From: a virus | IMG/VR virus record: IMGVR_UViG_3300038455_000034 | Coordinates: 1-54,415 of that record | DNA length: 54,415 nucleotides | Strand: one strand, 5' to 3' | In this document: positions 23,417 to 40,802 of the stretch, piece after piece | Layout: every line of letters starts with the position of its first letter | Numbering within the stretch: the first letter of the stretch is position 1 | Translations under genes and position numbers: made by a program | Notes under the pieces: model-generated | What the model was told of the DNA's origin: nothing | What the model saw: only the letters and a program-made list of their open reading frames with translations | The model's database searches: none

Positions 23417-23655
23417 ACCAGCTCACGATCTCGACCAAGGTCAACGAAGATGGAGATTTCGAGGCTAGGGCAGACGGACTCGGTGTGATCGGCGCTGGTC
23501 CAACTACCGAGTCCGCAATCTCCGACTTGCGCGAAACCATCACATCGATGTGGGATGAGTTCTCTCAAACGCCAGCCGCGAGGCTATCCGACGATGCGCT
23601 AGAGTTGTTCATGAACATGCGGCGTTGTGGGGTGGGCCAGAAGGATGCGCCATGA
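23413..23655 (+). CDS. HicB-like small protein (putative)
   Basis: GTG 23413 forms a GTGA overlap. ..DGDFEARADGLGVIGAGPTTESAISDLRETI.. resembles the HicB/UPF0150 fold signature. Confidence 0.45.
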   Translation: MNQLTISTKVNEDGDFEARADGLGVIGAGPTTESAISDLRETITSMWDEFSQTPAARLSDDALELFMNMRRCGVGQKDAP

Positions 23656-24173
23656 ACCTGCTCACACAACAGATCATCGACGAGGCCAGGAAGTGGATCG
23701 GCACCAAGGAAGAGGGACGCAACGACGGGCCGCAAATTCGCATCTGGCTGTCACGGGTCAACCGCCATTCCGGTGCCCCGTGGTGCGCGGCCTTCGCTTG
23801 GTGCATGCTCGACGATGCTTGCCGCGCGCTTGGTTTGCGCAACCCGCTCGAACCCGTGGCTGGCGTGCATCTATTCCGCCAGCTCGCGCGCGAGCAGAAG
23901 GCTTGGACGAATGAGCCCGGACCTGGCTACGTGTTTTTCATCGATCACGGCGTCGACAAGGCAGGTCATCGCCTCGGTCACTGCGGGATTGTCGTGGGCG
24001 TTGGTCCGCAGAGCTTGGCCACGATCGAGGGCAACACCAATGAAGCCGGCGGGCGGGAAGGCGACCGCGTGGCTATCAAGACACGTCGGCTTGGCGAGGT
24101 GTCGCTCGGCTATCTCGATCCAGGCATGCTGTGCGCTGGGCAGACCTGCTCCGAGATGGCGGCCGACCAATGA
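23652..24173 (+). CDS. CHAP-domain peptidoglycan hydrolase (endolysin)
   Basis: ATGA overlap. Motifs ..GAPWCAAFAWC.., ..GHCGIVV.. and TIEGNT occur in CHAP order. Confidence 0.8.
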   Translation: MNLLTQQIIDEARKWIGTKEEGRNDGPQIRIWLSRVNRHSGAPWCAAFAWCMLDDACRALGLRNPLEPVAGVHLFRQLAREQKAWTNEPGPGYVFFIDHGVDKAGHRLGHCGIVVGVGPQSLATIEGNTNEAGGREGDRVAIKTRRLGEVSLGYLDPGMLCAGQTCSEMAADQ

Positions 24174-27262: not shown

Positions 27263-27331
27263 GACCACAGACCGAGATGACGATACGGACCAGCACAGAG
27301 GAAGACACCATGGCGACGAAAGGACATCACG

Positions 27332-28294
27332 ATGTGTAAGCCATTGAGCGGTTACGCGAGTAGGCCGGGCGAGATCTACTGCATCCCCGAGAGAACACAC
27401 TCTCATAGCGAGCTCGCCTGGGCGTTCGGCCTGAACGATAGTGACGTCTCGTTCTATCGACAGAACCTAGCCAAGTACGAGTTTACCCCACCGGAAGATC
27501 CGAAACTGTGGGGAGACCTGTCCAAGTGGGAGCTGCGGGTCGATGAGGACGCGACGCCGGACTGGTTTGATCGTGAAAAGGTTCGCGTCCACATGGAGAT
27601 GCTTGTCGAGTCGATGTTCATCCGCGACGAACGCGGGGTACTCTGCGGAGGGTGTTGGATCCTCGACGGAGAGAGGGCGCGGATCAAAGGGATCCTTGGA
27701 GGAACGATCGTAGGCGTCGTGAACGGTGCCAGCCTCGACGGTGCCCGCCTCGACGGTGCCCGCCTCGACGGTGCCAGCCTCGACGGTGCCAGCCTCGTCG
27801 GTGCCAGCCTCTACCGTGCCAGCCTCTACCGTGCCAACCTCGACGGTGCCAGCCTCGACGGTGCCCGCCTTGACGGTGCCCGCCTCGACGGTGCCAGCCT
27901 CGACGGTGCCAGCCTCGACGGTGCCAGCCTCGTCGGTGCCCGCCTCTACCGTGCCAGCCTCTACCGTGCCAGCCTCTACCGTGCCAACCTCGTCGGTGCC
28001 CGCCTCGACGGTGCCCGCCTTGACGGTGCCAGCCTCGACGGTGCCCGCCTCGACGGTGCCCGCCTCGACGGTGCCCGCCTCGACGGTGCCAGCCTCGACG
28101 GTGCCCGCCTCGACGGTGCCCGCCTCGACGGTGCCCGCCTCGACGGTGCCCGCCTCTACCGTGCCAACCTCGACGGTGCCAGCCTCGTCGGTGCCAGCCT
28201 CGTCGGTGCCTATATTCAGGATGGTGGATGGATTCCGGCGGGGTGGAAGCGCGGTCAAAACGGACTATTGGTCAAGGATGACACTACACGATGA
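27332..28294 (+). CDS. Pentapeptide-repeat protein (N-terminal ~130-aa domain plus 32 consecutive pentapeptides)
   Basis: 320-aa ORF. The units are [25 protein letters not shown] x 32, matching the A(D/N)LXX-type quadrilateral beta-helix signature. Confidence 0.85.
27725..28204 (+). repeat. 32 x 15-bp near-identical tandem repeat (ggtgcc[ac]gcctcgac and variants)
   Basis: Read directly. Only a few variant positions occur per unit. Confidence 0.95.
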
Positions 28295-28344
28295 AGGAGA
28301 ACGGACCTATGACGATACCTGCCGCCCGGCCAGATTGAGGCGCC

Positions 28345-28455
28345 ATGACCGGACAGCAGAGAGCGAGTGTGCAGTTCACAAAGCCGGGTTTCGTTTGGTG
28401 CTTTGTGGTGCTCTGCGCGGTCGTGGGGCTGATTGTTTGGTGGATGATTCGATAG
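28345..28455 (+). CDS. 36-aa single-TM micro-protein (tentative)
   Basis: gagg lies 5 nt upstream. Translation is MTGQQRASVQFTKPGFVWCFVVLCAVVGLIVWWMIR. Confidence 0.4.
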   Translation: MTGQQRASVQFTKPGFVWCFVVLCAVVGLIVWWMIR

Positions 28456-28477
28456 CAAAACAATAAGGAGACATAAT

Positions 28478-31847: not shown

Positions 31848-32147
31848 ATGAACCCGATAGTAGAATACGAAATGAGCGACGATGACCTGCGCGAGCTACA
31901 GGAGAACGCCAACCGAGCGTGGGCGGCACTTGGCCACAAGATGGGCTTCCAGCCAATGACCGTGCGTCTTTGCAATGGAAAGGGGGAGAAGTTCTTCACC
32001 GCAGTTCCGAGCGAGACGGAGGAACAGCGCAAAGAGCGAATGGACCGGGAAGTGGCCGAGAAGAAAGCGGCGGCCATTCGCTCTTTTTTGGAGAAGCGGC
32101 GCGCGTTGGAACAACTGCATCTCGAATTGAAGGAGCTGGAGGGTTAG
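31848..32147 (+). CDS. Hypothetical protein (99 aa)
   Basis: Track ORF with RBS gaaagga. Confidence 0.6.
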   Translation: MNPIVEYEMSDDDLRELQENANRAWAALGHKMGFQPMTVRLCNGKGEKFFTAVPSETEEQRKERMDREVAEKKAAAIRSFLEKRRALEQLHLELKELEG

Positions 32148-32217
32148 CACCACGGCCAGCCGGAACCGTGTACCCCCGGCGCTGCGCTCTTGGCGTAGAC
32201 GCGGCGCCTGGCAACTT

Positions 32218-32257
32218 TTCGAGAGACAACTGAAAGATTCGAGAGACAACTGGAAGA
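32218..32257. repeat. 2 x 20-bp tandem direct repeat ttcgagagacaactg[a/g]aaga just upstream of gene 32269
   Basis: Read directly, 19/20 identical. Confidence 0.9.
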
Positions 32258-32268
32258 AAGGACCGAAG

Positions 32269-32619
32269 ATGATCGACGTAGACAGTCTCACAATTGGACA
32301 ACTCAAGGAGCTTCGTGCGCTCCTTGGCGGCGACTCCGCCACAACCCAGCCACCGCACCCTTACGAGATCGGCAAGGTGCACTTCATCCGCACCGTAACC
32401 CACCACTTTACAGGAAAGCTCGTGGCCGTGTTCCCGCAGGAGCTGGTCTTCGAGGACGTGGCGTGGATTGCCGACGATGGGCGGCTCGCCACCGCGCTCG
32501 TGAAAGGCGAGTTCAACGAGGTCGAGCCGTACCCGGACGGGCGAAGAGTGGTCATCGGTCGCGGTTCGCTCATTGACGCCCACGCCGTCGAATGGGTGGC
32601 GCCAAGGTCGCAGCGATGA
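32269..32619 (+). CDS. Conserved phage protein of unknown function (116 aa)
   Basis: Track ORF with RBS gaaagga. Confidence 0.65.
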   Translation: MIDVDSLTIGQLKELRALLGGDSATTQPPHPYEIGKVHFIRTVTHHFTGKLVAVFPQELVFEDVAWIADDGRLATALVKGEFNEVEPYPDGRRVVIGRGSLIDAHAVEWVAPRSQR

Positions 32620-32822
32620 ACGCGGCGATCCTGTTTTCCGGGTGGTCGGGGTTGGGGTCGGGGTCGCGGTCGCGGTCGCGGTCGGGGTCGCGGTCGGGGT
32701 CGGGGTTGGGGTCGCGGTCGGAGTCGGGGTCGCGGTCGGGGTCGTGGTCGGGGTCGTGGTCGGGGTCGTGGTCGCGGTCGCGGTCGCGGTCGTGGTCGCG
32801 GTCGCGGTCGCGGTCGGGCTAA
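32616..32822 (+). CDS. Candidate 68-aa Ser-Arg/Ser-Gly/Ser-Trp dipeptide-repeat protein (tentative)
   Basis: ATG 32616 forms an ATGA overlap with the upstream stop. All repeat codons are TCG/CGG/GGG/TGG. Stop TAA is at 32820-32822, with a hairpin 13 nt downstream. A second frame (Gly-Val/Ala-Val) is also open. Confidence 0.3.
   Translation: MNAAILFSGWSGLGSGSRSRSRSGSRSGSGLGSRSESGSRSGSWSGSWSGSWSRSRSRSWSRSRSRSG
32644..32817. repeat. 29 x hexanucleotide GGTCGN microsatellite, G-rich on the + strand
   Basis: Counted directly. The units are ggtcgg/ggtcgc/ggtcgt/ggttgg/agtcgg. Confidence 0.95.
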
Positions 32823-32834
32823 AGAGATCACGCA

Positions 32835-32855
32835 AGCGCATCCTGGCGATGCGCT
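32835..32855 (+). terminator. Hairpin agcgcatc-ctggc-gatgcgct (no U-tract)
   Basis: An 8-bp perfect stem directly after the repeat tract. Confidence 0.3.
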
Positions 32856-38944: not shown

Positions 38945-39244
38945 ATGGACGACATCTTTGCACTTCAGGGAGACCAGATTATTCGCAAGCTCGACAAACG
39001 CATCGCCGGGGAACTCGAACCGGCGAGGGACCTGGTGATTGCTGGCAGCCACAGTAGCCCGCACATCATCGTCGGGCGCTGCTACACGCGCATGGAGCGA
39101 GATAGGAGGCTCGTCCGCGTGTCGCGCGCGACGATCATCAAGCATGCGGACCGGCATCGGCCCACGAAACTCATCAAGGGAGACTACGAAATTTATCCCC
39201 AGCGCGAGCGCGGCGGCGACGGTGACCGGGCCGTGGAGGACTGA
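38945..39244 (+). CDS. Hypothetical protein (99 aa)
   Basis: RBS caggagag. Confidence 0.6.
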   Translation: MDDIFALQGDQIIRKLDKRIAGELEPARDLVIAGSHSSPHIIVGRCYTRMERDRRLVRVSRATIIKHADRHRPTKLIKGDYEIYPQRERGGDGDRAVED

Positions 39245-39245
39245 C

Positions 39246-40802
39246 ATGGCTAAGAAGCTCTATCACATGACCCCGGCACACAGAAGGCGCCTCCACGACT
39301 GGTCCGATAAGGTGCTGGCCAACGCGCGCAGAACAGACCCCATGTCGGCCGAGGATCGCGCGAAGGCCGAGGGCGCCATTCGCGGCATCTACAACAGCAT
39401 CGGCCTCGGCGGAGGGAAGGTGCGCGTGGTCTTTTGCGCATCTCCTGACGTCGCCAGAATTGCTGGCCGCCTAGCGTTTTCCGCGCGCTGGCTACGCGAG
39501 CATCCCGAATCCCAGCGCAAGATCTTCGGCCGTCTCCTGCGACCGGCAGAGCTAAGGGATGCGCTCCGCCGAGCCGCGACTATGTTGGTGGTGGGGACCA
39601 GGTCTCGCATGAGCGATTTGGAGCCGAAAGTGCTCCCTCTCGTCCGAGCTGCCGCTGCCGCTGCCGCTGCCGCTGACGCTGCCGCTGCCACTGCCGCTGC
39701 CGCTGCCACTGCCGCTGCCGCTGCCGCTGCCGCTGCCACTGCCGATGCCACTGCCGCTGCCGCTGACGCTGCCGATGCCGCTGCCGATGCCGATGACGCT
39801 GACGCTGCCGCTGACGATGCCGCTGCCGCTGCCGCTGCCACTGCCGCTGCCGCTGCCGATGCCGATGCCGATGCCGCTGCCGATGCCGATGACGCTGACG
39901 CTGCCGATGACGATGCCGCTGCCGCTGCCGATGCCGCTGCCGCTGCCGATGCCGCTGCCGCTGCCGCTGCCGCTGCCGCTGACGCTGCCGATGCCGATGC
40001 CGCTGCCGCTGCCGCTGCCGATGCCGATGCCGCTGCCGCTGCCGATGCCGCTGCCGCTGCCGCTGCCGCTGCCGCTGCCGATGGGATCGTCGTGGCATGC
40101 ACCTACTACTTCGTGCGGGCGTATAGGCGATATTGGTGGAGGCGCTTGCAGGGCGGAAACCTCCGCACGTGGCATCTAGTCAGGTGCGGGTTCTTTCTCC
40201 ACGTCGCCAAGCTCGACATCAACTGGCGTAGCTATCCCCAGTACGAAGCTGCGGCGTTTGCGTCGGGTCCGCGGGTCATGTATCGCGACTTTTGTCTGGT
40301 CTCCGATCGTTGCTCCGTGTTGCACAACGATGAACGAAATCGGCTGCACTGTGAGACTGGCCCGGCCATCGGGTGGAGAAATGGATCCTCCATGTACTAC
40401 TGGCACGGCGTCCGGGTGCCGAGGCGATTGATCGAGAGGCCTGGTTCCTACACCTCCGACGAGTACAAGAGACTCCCGGCGGAACAGCGGCGCGCTCTTG
40501 GTGAGCATCTGGGATGGGACAAGGTGCTTGCGATGCTCGGATCGTCGTCGGTTGACGACGCGATCATCGACGGCTTGGCGTATGAGCTTGTCAGGTGCTC
40601 CGATCACTCACAATACCTACGCATGCAGAGCCCGGTGCTGCAAGACGGGTCACAACCATACTATTTGGAACCCGCGCATGAGGATTCGAAGACGGCGGCT
40701 GGAGCACGCAAGTGGCGATTGGCTCGCGAGCCTAGCGGGAGATGGTGGACGCCAGGTGAGTGTGACGAGAATCCAACTATCAAGATCGGCCAGCACACGT
40801 GA
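39246..40802 (+). CDS. DUF6745-like protein interrupted by a ~144-residue poly-Ala/Asp tract
   Basis: ATG 39246. The N-terminus ..TDPMSAEDRAKAEGAIRGIYNSIGLGGGKVRVVFCASP.. and C-terminus ..LHCETGPAIGWRNGSSMYYWHGVRVP.. are recalled family signatures. Confidence 0.65.
   Translation: MAKKLYHMTPAHRRRLHDWSDKVLANARRTDPMSAEDRAKAEGAIRGIYNSIGLGGGKVRVVFCASPDVARIAGRLAFSARWLREHPESQRKIFGRLLRPAELRDALRRAATMLVVGTRSRMSDLEPKVLPLVRAAAAAAAAADAAAATAAAAATAAAAAAAAATADATAAAADAADAAADADDADAAADDAAAAAAATAAAAADADADAAADADDADAADDDAAAAADAAAAADAAAAAAAAAADAADADAAAAAAADADAAAAADAAAAAAAAAAADGIVVACTYYFVRAYRRYWWRRLQGGNLRTWHLVRCGFFLHVAKLDINWRSYPQYEAAAFASGPRVMYRDFCLVSDRCSVLHNDERNRLHCETGPAIGWRNGSSMYYWHGVRVPRRLIERPGSYTSDEYKRLPAEQRRALGEHLGWDKVLAMLGSSSVDDAIIDGLAYELVRCSDHSQYLRMQSPVLQDGSQPYYLEPAHEDSKTAAGARKWRLAREPSGRWWTPGECDENPTIKIGQHT
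39648..40080 (+). repeat. About 72 hexanucleotide units (gctgcc/gctgac/gatgcc/actgcc) encoding Ala/Asp/Thr low complexity
   Basis: Read directly. It produces open shadow frames in several other frames. Confidence 0.95.

Follow-up and report, generated by a model that had tools for sequence, protein, structure and literature searches.

A predicted pentapeptide beta-helix encoded by a 15-bp tandem array and joined to a conserved N-terminal domain in an uncultured phage

The complete genome of an uncultured phage (IMG/VR record IMGVR_UViG_3300038455_000034; 54,415 bp with direct terminal repeats and 60.9% G+C), which constitutes in its full length the window analysed here, bears its genes on the plus strand. 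One of these genes, located among small open reading frames (ORFs), encodes a pentapeptide-repeat protein that is the subject of this study (Table 1). The protein comprises an N-terminal head of about 130 residues, which belongs to a family spread over hundreds of clusters of related proteins, and a rod encoded by an array of nearly identical 15-bp units. We are highly confident of this anatomy and of the mode of evolution described below. The complete statement, that this is a two-part accessory protein of a tailed phage with a conserved head on a fast-evolving rod and with a role in host interaction or counter-defence, appears to us about as probable as its negation.

Table 1. Parts of the repeat gene and its surroundings in the window.
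Feature	Position	Strand	Description and basis
Whole repeat gene	27332..28294	+	320 codons plus stop: N-domain, predicted pentapeptide beta-helix, C-terminal cap; ORF list
Shine-Dalgarno-like AAGGA	27320..27324	+	7 nt 5' of the repeat-gene ATG; read from the sequence
9-codon stub ORF (MATKGHHDV)	27310-27339	+	Overlaps the repeat-gene start codon and holds its Shine-Dalgarno box
Head core, residues 1-99	27332..27628	+	Predicted small alpha/beta domain; conservation and AlphaFold2
Beta-hairpin adaptor, residues 100-132	27629..27727	+	LLGGCWI motif; leads into the predicted solenoid; present whatever the repeat type
32 uniform 15-bp units	27728..28207	+	Residues 133-292 in A-x-L-x-x register; pentapeptides A[S/R/N]L[D/V/Y][G/R]
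Degenerate 33rd unit	28208..28222	+	AYIQD; closes the predicted helix
C-terminal tail	28223..28291	+	23 non-repeat residues, predicted beta-hairpin cap; strands E305-307 and E312-315 in the model
Tape-measure protein and large unidentified ORFs (presumed tail)	3.6-17 kb	+	
CHAP-domain hydrolase	23625-24173	+	
Small ORFs, function unassigned	about 24.5-29.4 kb	+	Continue to about 29368; ORF list
PDDEXK-like protein, HNH endonuclease, sigma factor, primase-helicase, portal protein	3' of the small-ORF block	+	

The reading frame of the repeat gene is fixed, because the N-terminal domain and the C-terminal tail are both conserved in homologues, and so is the start codon at 27332, because Met1-Cys2 is kept family-wide. 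Two other open frames extend over the array (27467-28258 on the minus strand and 27726-28466 on the plus strand), and we rejected them as genes, regarding them as by-products of a stop-free unit. The stub ORF listed in Table 1 may couple translation of the repeat gene to the upstream small-ORF array.

Tandem Repeats Finder delimited the array at positions 27723-28210, with a period of 15, 32.5 copies, 91% matches and zero indels. Eight distinct 15-mers were found (mean pairwise unit identity of 88.6%), the commonest being GCCCGCCTCGACGGT (ten copies) and GCCAGCCTCGACGGT (seven copies); these are the two 15-mers quoted in an earlier note on this DNA, which was made from the sequence alone. The same note took the C-terminal 160 residues to be 32 pentapeptides. 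The 32 uninterrupted units are indeed present, but they are not C-terminal, as the degenerate unit and the 23-residue tail come after them. Only six of the 15 positions vary among units: codons 2 (Ser/Arg/Asn) and 4 (Asp/Val/Tyr) have two variable positions each, codon 5 (Gly/Arg) has one, and the last is a silent change in the Leu codon. Ala (i-2) and Leu (i), which face inward, are the same in all units. All 32 Ala codons are GCC and 30 of the 32 Leu codons are CTC, while these codons account for 32% and 30%, respectively, in the genome background. Such uniformity (32/32 GCC versus 32%) excludes independent codon choice, and the array was therefore amplified from one unit. The order of the eight unit types along the array, ABBACDDE AFBAACGDDH BFABBBABBBGECC, shows block duplication followed by single-unit indels. 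We also considered a duplication period of the size of one coil (four units), and did not retain it, as the autocorrelation had no clear peak at four units and a weak one at 8-9.

The rod itself could be assigned with little ambiguity. The protein belongs to Pfam PF00805 (E = 1e-39; 134.1 bits versus a cut-off of 20.2 bits), and a single-sequence AlphaFold2 model had predicted local distance difference test (pLDDT) values of 88-98 over residues about 150-280, with one strand residue per five residues. Foldseek placed the rod model among solved pentapeptide helices (E = 1e-13 to 1e-6; target-normalised template-modelling (TM) scores of 0.77-0.80 for 5dqa, 4ycq and 5di5). The best matches in both sequence and structure were the designed consensus solenoid beta1 and Nostoc Np275/Np276 (PDB 4yc5, 5dqa and 2j8k; phmmer E = 3e-42 to 8e-28 in the PDB sequence search), with MfpA and Qnr far behind. 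The repeats of the present protein come near to the consensus pentapeptide in its ideal form; the matches, being synthetic or cyanobacterial and devoid of the head domain, are uninformative on function. The four lines of evidence (family match, model, structural neighbours and PDB sequences) agree with the claim of the earlier note that the protein is a pentapeptide beta-helix protein, and the rod is predicted with high confidence to be a right-handed quadrilateral beta-helix of about eight coils built from uniform units, four units per coil.

The earlier note went further and regarded a DNA-mimic role as plausible. On this account, the protein would imitate DNA as MfpA, Qnr and AlbG do, or serve as an Ocr-like anti-restriction decoy, its binding partner being gyrase, a restriction enzyme or a DNA sensor. 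The fold and dimensions do match pentapeptide helices including MfpA, Qnr and AlbG (these three and EfsQnr are right-handed quadrilateral beta-helices of about eight coils, like the one predicted here), the gene lies within an accessory block, and the whole protein is mildly acidic, with an isoelectric point of 5.27. However, DNA-mimic proteins (MfpA/Qnr, Ocr and ArdA) expose a strongly anionic surface imitating the phosphate backbone, and a sequence-level count, which covers the charge part of the electrostatic prediction suggested in the earlier note, gave a neutral repeat region: 21 Asp/Glu and 20 Lys/Arg, net charge -1. The four faces of the helix carry charges of -3, 0, +3 and -2, none being consistently acidic, and Arg (at i-1 or i+2) and Asp (at i+1) occur on the rod surface in near-equal numbers. 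Pentapeptide-type relatives range from acidic through basic (surface charge of -0.12 to +0.06 per residue), and many other relatives have replaced the pentapeptide helix with a different solenoid. Scores against the NCBIfam models fell far below the cut-offs for both Qnr (NF033086, 30.9 bits versus 240; subfamily models, 17-39 bits versus 425-500) and MfpA (NF000349, 56 bits versus 360). MfpA, Qnr, AlbG and EfsQnr combine degenerate repeats, an anionic DNA-like surface and C-terminal dimerisation, and Qnr also has loops; in QnrB1 structures, loops A and B interrupt the helix. The present protein, in contrast, is neutral by sequence charge, runs through 32 units without loop insertions, ends in the model with a beta-hairpin instead of a dimerisation helix, and possesses an extra head domain. 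A DNA-mimic role is thus very unlikely in our judgement.

The N-terminal ~130 residues, which the earlier note had singled out as a separate domain, proved to be one in two respects: they form a family-wide N-terminal match block, and they yielded a confident model of their own. An exhaustive phmmer search over 1.84 billion representative proteins detected a head family that numbers at least 505 clusters when grouped at 50% identity (E <= 1e-3), 160 of them with E <= 1e-10 and the best with 2e-54. The matched region is the extreme N-terminus in nearly all clusters. Two members are called with a start upstream of the domain. In both, a Met-Cys pair occurs further in, precisely at the first two domain positions, and their upstream starts were probably mis-called. 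Apparent head-only members also occur (e.g., P0142, 133 aa). Met1, Cys2 and His25 show no or almost no variation in the family alignments; further near-invariant positions are S6, G13, T22, D23, S24, E50, P53, P54, D71, E72, P76 and W78 in the head, and G106, G107, W109 and I110 in the adaptor. The AlphaFold2 model of the head, based on 80 sequences (pLDDT 92.4; predicted TM score 0.84), has the order beta1, alpha1, beta2, beta3, alpha2, and then beta-hairpins entering the solenoid, with adaptor strands at E100-105, 108-112, 117-122 and 125-130.

No known domain corresponded to the head. A homology search with the N-terminal domain, as the earlier note had recommended, recovered a family from phage metagenomes, and the libraries of known domains and proteins (Pfam, PHROG, NCBIfam and PADLOC) gave zero matches. 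The head profile against PDB sequences gave a best E value of 1.6, which is noise, and Foldseek detected no structural neighbour of the head model in the PDB (best E = 1.0, TM 0.2); in BFVD, only two uncharacterised phage protein fragments matched. We also rejected the idea that the Met-Cys start marks a canonical Ntn-hydrolase, since the head is too small for one and no Ntn fold matched it structurally. As far as sequence and model comparisons can tell, the head with its Met-Cys start and His25 is an undescribed domain and represents the new element of this study.

Judging from where its sequences were recovered, the head family is essentially metagenomic and of phage origin. A tblastn search of 50,697 GenBank phage records with the head of this protein returned no match, and two family representatives retrieved only three uncultured records. 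The close-subfamily head profile had zero matches in 185,579 species genomes, and a scan of viral contigs detected nothing with the head of this protein and one locus with a seven-sequence alignment. Only one member bears a name, a partial 'pentapeptide repeat-containing protein' in an Armatimonadia metagenome-assembled genome, on a contig that carries a phage-type primase-helicase. Binning placed the closest relative with an Armatimonadia genome. All the long contigs bearing the head family are phage-like, and the gene lies there among small ORFs without assigned function and, in the contexts examined, never in a structural module. Known anti-defence genes were found within a few kilobases of the head gene in two contexts, Apyc1 and AcrVA2-like genes at locus L004 and Tad4 at locus L011. 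The small-ORF run of L004 (ENA contig k141_1468363, 65 kb) is long and contains, besides the head-family member with 27-bp (9-residue) repeats, genes for an Apyc1-like metallo-beta-lactamase, an AcrVA2-like protein, a T4-type RNA ligase and HSP20. Screening of the atypical family members for domain fusions revealed only a weak Fis-type helix-turn-helix in one member.

These data bear on whether the head is a mere folding nucleus, cap or oligomerisation module, which would leave the protein as a passive structural or scaffold element. Solenoids need caps, the beta-hairpins of residues 100-131 run directly into the solenoid, and the head matches no catalytic family, all of which fit such a module. 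Nevertheless, the Met-Cys start, His25 and the acidic residues conserved over at least 505 clusters exceed what a cap usually needs, head-only proteins such as P0142 appear to exist, and the gene stays outside structural modules. We accordingly consider the passive module unlikely.

A comparison of the family members suggested that the rod is far less constant than the head. Among the members analysed, the repeats behind the head are of a period-9 GSSQVGxMx type in 96, of period 5 in 51 and of a period-8 GGTVxxIx type in nine, besides rarer types, so that about two thirds of the members with a clear repeat period have a non-pentapeptide solenoid; some of these match the Pfam Decapeptide and YdcK beta-solenoid models. 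The caps differ as well. Most pentapeptide-type relatives share the cap motif P-x-G-W ... G-(I/L)-(V/L)-V, its G-W part being present in 31 of the 43 with a tail of at least eight residues, and among members with S-[S/A]-x-[V/I] repeats, a set more loosely defined, 23 of 58 tails end with a D-x-R motif. The rod with its cap thus looks exchangeable as a module while the head remains constant.

The repeats were DNA-level arrays at every related locus of which the DNA was read: 15 bp x 15.6 in L002, 27 bp x 5.8 in L004, 15 bp x 6.7 with 90% matches in L005, 19 units in L007 and 12 units in L009. Synonymous codons are uniform inside each array and differ between lineages, Ala and Leu being encoded by GCC/CTC in this gene, GCG/CTG in L002, L007 and L009, GCG/TTG in L008, and GCG/CTC in L006. 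It follows that the amplification and homogenisation of each array took place later than the split of the lineages. In a loose count of the longest pentapeptide run, the relatives have 6-31 units and this gene has 35, the longest (median of 15 across all 50 pentapeptide-type members). L007 and L009 have flanks identical at 810/810 and 577/578 bases and differ by seven units (105 bp) in their arrays. Together, the homogeneous codons within arrays, the differences between lineages, the range of run lengths and this pair bear out the expectation of the earlier note that the array is young and labile in length. P0003 (167 aa), the closest head relative with 64% identity, has after three pentapeptides its own repeat read differently (GEPRQGEPQRGVPQR), which suggests a frameshift or sequencing error within the array.

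Could the recorded array length instead reflect collapse or expansion during assembly, the variation among relatives being technical? The 480-bp array exceeds a short read, three of the six related loci (L002, L006 and L008) end within their arrays, and repeats are known to break assemblies (PMC9238414). L007 (1-1687; JGI Ga0316630) and L009 (1-4212; ENA ERZ27267272) come from different archives and start at the same base, and may be two assemblies of the same reads. On the other hand, the longest exact internal repeat of the present array is 69 bp, so that reads of 100-150 nt could thread it and the recorded copy number is plausible. The order of units is structured, more than a run of one unit would be, neither the frame nor the head nor the conserved tail is disrupted, and lineage-specific codon sets are not made by an assembler. 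Furthermore, the same kind of change has been seen between isolates: the genomes of phages L and ST64T, with >99.9% identity, differ in just two respects, and one of these is the in-frame loss of 15 bp, and thus of one pentapeptide, from orf232 (PMC8022706). An artefact is improbable on balance, although we give it slightly more weight than DNA mimicry.

The orf232 of these P22-like Salmonella phages is a pentapeptide gene in an early accessory operon and exhibits the mode of change proposed here; it belongs to enterobacterial temperate phages, has no assigned function, and is set beside the present gene by its description (PMC8022706). DNA-level arrays are found in cultured phages as well. 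The pentapeptide genes of Pseudomonas phage Amjad_SA (15-bp unit x 28.9, 84% matches), Edwardsiella phage PEi21 (x 16.5, 85%), Rheinheimera phage Barba8S (x 21.7, 87%) and Bordetella phage vB_BaM-IFTN6 (x 19.9, 89%) are likewise 15-bp arrays among small hypothetical genes. The earlier note had considered such a near-perfect array unusual; with 16-29 copies at 84-89% matches in these four phages, and published cases in addition, this is not so. The layout of the four proteins is reversed, a short N-terminus being followed by the repeats and a conserved C-terminal domain of 70-100 aa, whereas the present protein has after its repeats only the 23-residue tail and no globular domain of that type. 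Neither BLASTP nor the hidden Markov model of the head family detected similarity to the head or tail in the proteins of these four phages.

Our account of how the protein is built and changes is as follows. The conserved head of ~130 residues is mounted on a rigid beta-solenoid shaft, in this phage a predicted eight-coil pentapeptide helix with a beta-hairpin cap. Slipped-strand mispairing or unequal recombination adds or removes whole pentapeptides and blocks of 4-10 units, and the frame survives such gains and losses because each unit spans a whole number of codons. The length of the rod and its outward-facing residues consequently shift fast, whereas Ala and Leu on the inner side are retained. 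That members share the head but differ in the length and the repeat class of the shaft (5, 8 or 9 residues) suggests that the head carries a conserved activity. The shaft would then be a replaceable, fast-evolving scaffold or a variable binding surface. The N-terminal Cys, which would be exposed if Met1 is removed, may form a catalytic or tight-binding site together with His25 and the nearby conserved acidic residues.

As to function, the best guide is gene 24_60 of Vibrio phage 24, the sole phage pentapeptide protein for which we found a genetic phenotype. Deletion of 24_60 makes the phage far more sensitive to the Sucellos defence, escape mutations fall in the repeats, and the repeat region failed to assemble and needed polymerase chain reaction and Sanger sequencing (bioRxiv 10.1101/2024.07.02.601686). 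The product is also an accessory pentapeptide-repeat protein and is postulated to counter Sucellos, and we liken it to the present protein by description (bioRxiv 10.1101/2024.07.02.601686). By this model, the protein may serve host takeover or counter-defence by binding or modifying a protein of the host while infection proceeds. A host-interaction or counter-defence role is favoured because the gene always lies in a run of small phage genes, because anti-defence genes are nearby in two contexts and because 24_60 is a postulated anti-defence factor. That the protein is a host-interaction or counter-defence factor is, by this analogy, a tentative proposal to which we give a little less than an even chance. 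It is attractive to speculate further that the head is a new fold with catalytic or inhibitory activity, that it defines a large phage-only family of counter-defence or host-takeover proteins, and that shafts from at least three unrelated repeat classes serve it as in-frame 'contingency' modules. If this is the case, which we find doubtful but less so than the passive module, the gain, loss and replacement of repeats would keep re-tuning the reach or surface of the protein in an arms race with the host.

Several observations weigh against a two-part host-interaction factor with a fast-evolving rod. Firstly, the role is argued by analogy, no homology ties the protein or its head to an activity or a target, and it is from conservation that the Cys/His pair may be an active or binding site. 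Secondly, a His replaces the near-invariant Asp23 in this very protein, although all the other listed family residues are present. Thirdly, the association with anti-defence neighbours is loose, being seen in only two of six contexts. Fourthly, variation among the units amounts to five non-synonymous sites, none in the Ala or Leu codons, and one synonymous site, a sample too small for selection to be demonstrated: chance alone predicts a synonymous share of 24%, and the probability that the Ala/Leu codons are spared by all five non-synonymous changes is about 0.11. Selection on outward-facing residues was dropped from consideration for this reason, the independent changes being too few. Fifthly, the difference in length between L007 and L009 could be an artefact, should they be two assemblies of the same reads, and the pair is suggestive only. 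Finally, no close relative of the whole phage was found in the collections searched, the best match to the portal protein being 35% on a 5.5-kb contig.

In the genome, the repeat gene is situated inside the block of small ORFs and not at its end, as had been supposed in the earlier note, since small ORFs run on to about 29368. One of them, a 36-codon ORF on the plus strand (28346-28456), starts 51 bp 3' of the repeat gene and encodes MTGQQRASVQFTKPGFVWCFVVLCAVVGLIVWWMIR, with one hydrophobic segment resembling a membrane span; a terminator-like hairpin (28410-28429) sits within it, and no counterpart was seen beside the relatives of the repeat gene. The genome contains three long in-frame tandem arrays in all. 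The second long coding microsatellite (39648-40080, plus strand) consists of 72 copies of a 6-bp unit (GCTGCC) with 88% matches, and lies inside ORF 39039-40802, the 587-aa product of which matches DUF6745 in its C-terminal part. The third (32644-32818) consists of 29 copies of a 6-bp unit (GGTCGG) and would, on the minus strand, encode a Thr/Pro/Ala-rich stretch of ORF 31996-32841.

Pentapeptide-repeat genes are abundant in phages, are systematically lost from short-read assemblies, and almost all have no assigned function; their proteins are 26-fold more numerous in long-read viromes than in assemblies (PMC9238414). Arrays of a 15-bp unit at the DNA level are common in these genes, and a Qnr-like annotation of the present protein, as a DNA mimic or a quinolone-resistance protein, has been removed as unsupported. 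What is new is the apparently undescribed head family, paired in hundreds of uncultured phages with interchangeable, fast-evolving solenoids of at least three rod kinds. The head offers an experimental handle, as it is small, is predicted to be well folded, and has a conserved N-terminal Cys and a conserved His. Rods of differing length and type also occur naturally in the family, and with these it may be tested what the rods do in the conflict between phage and host.

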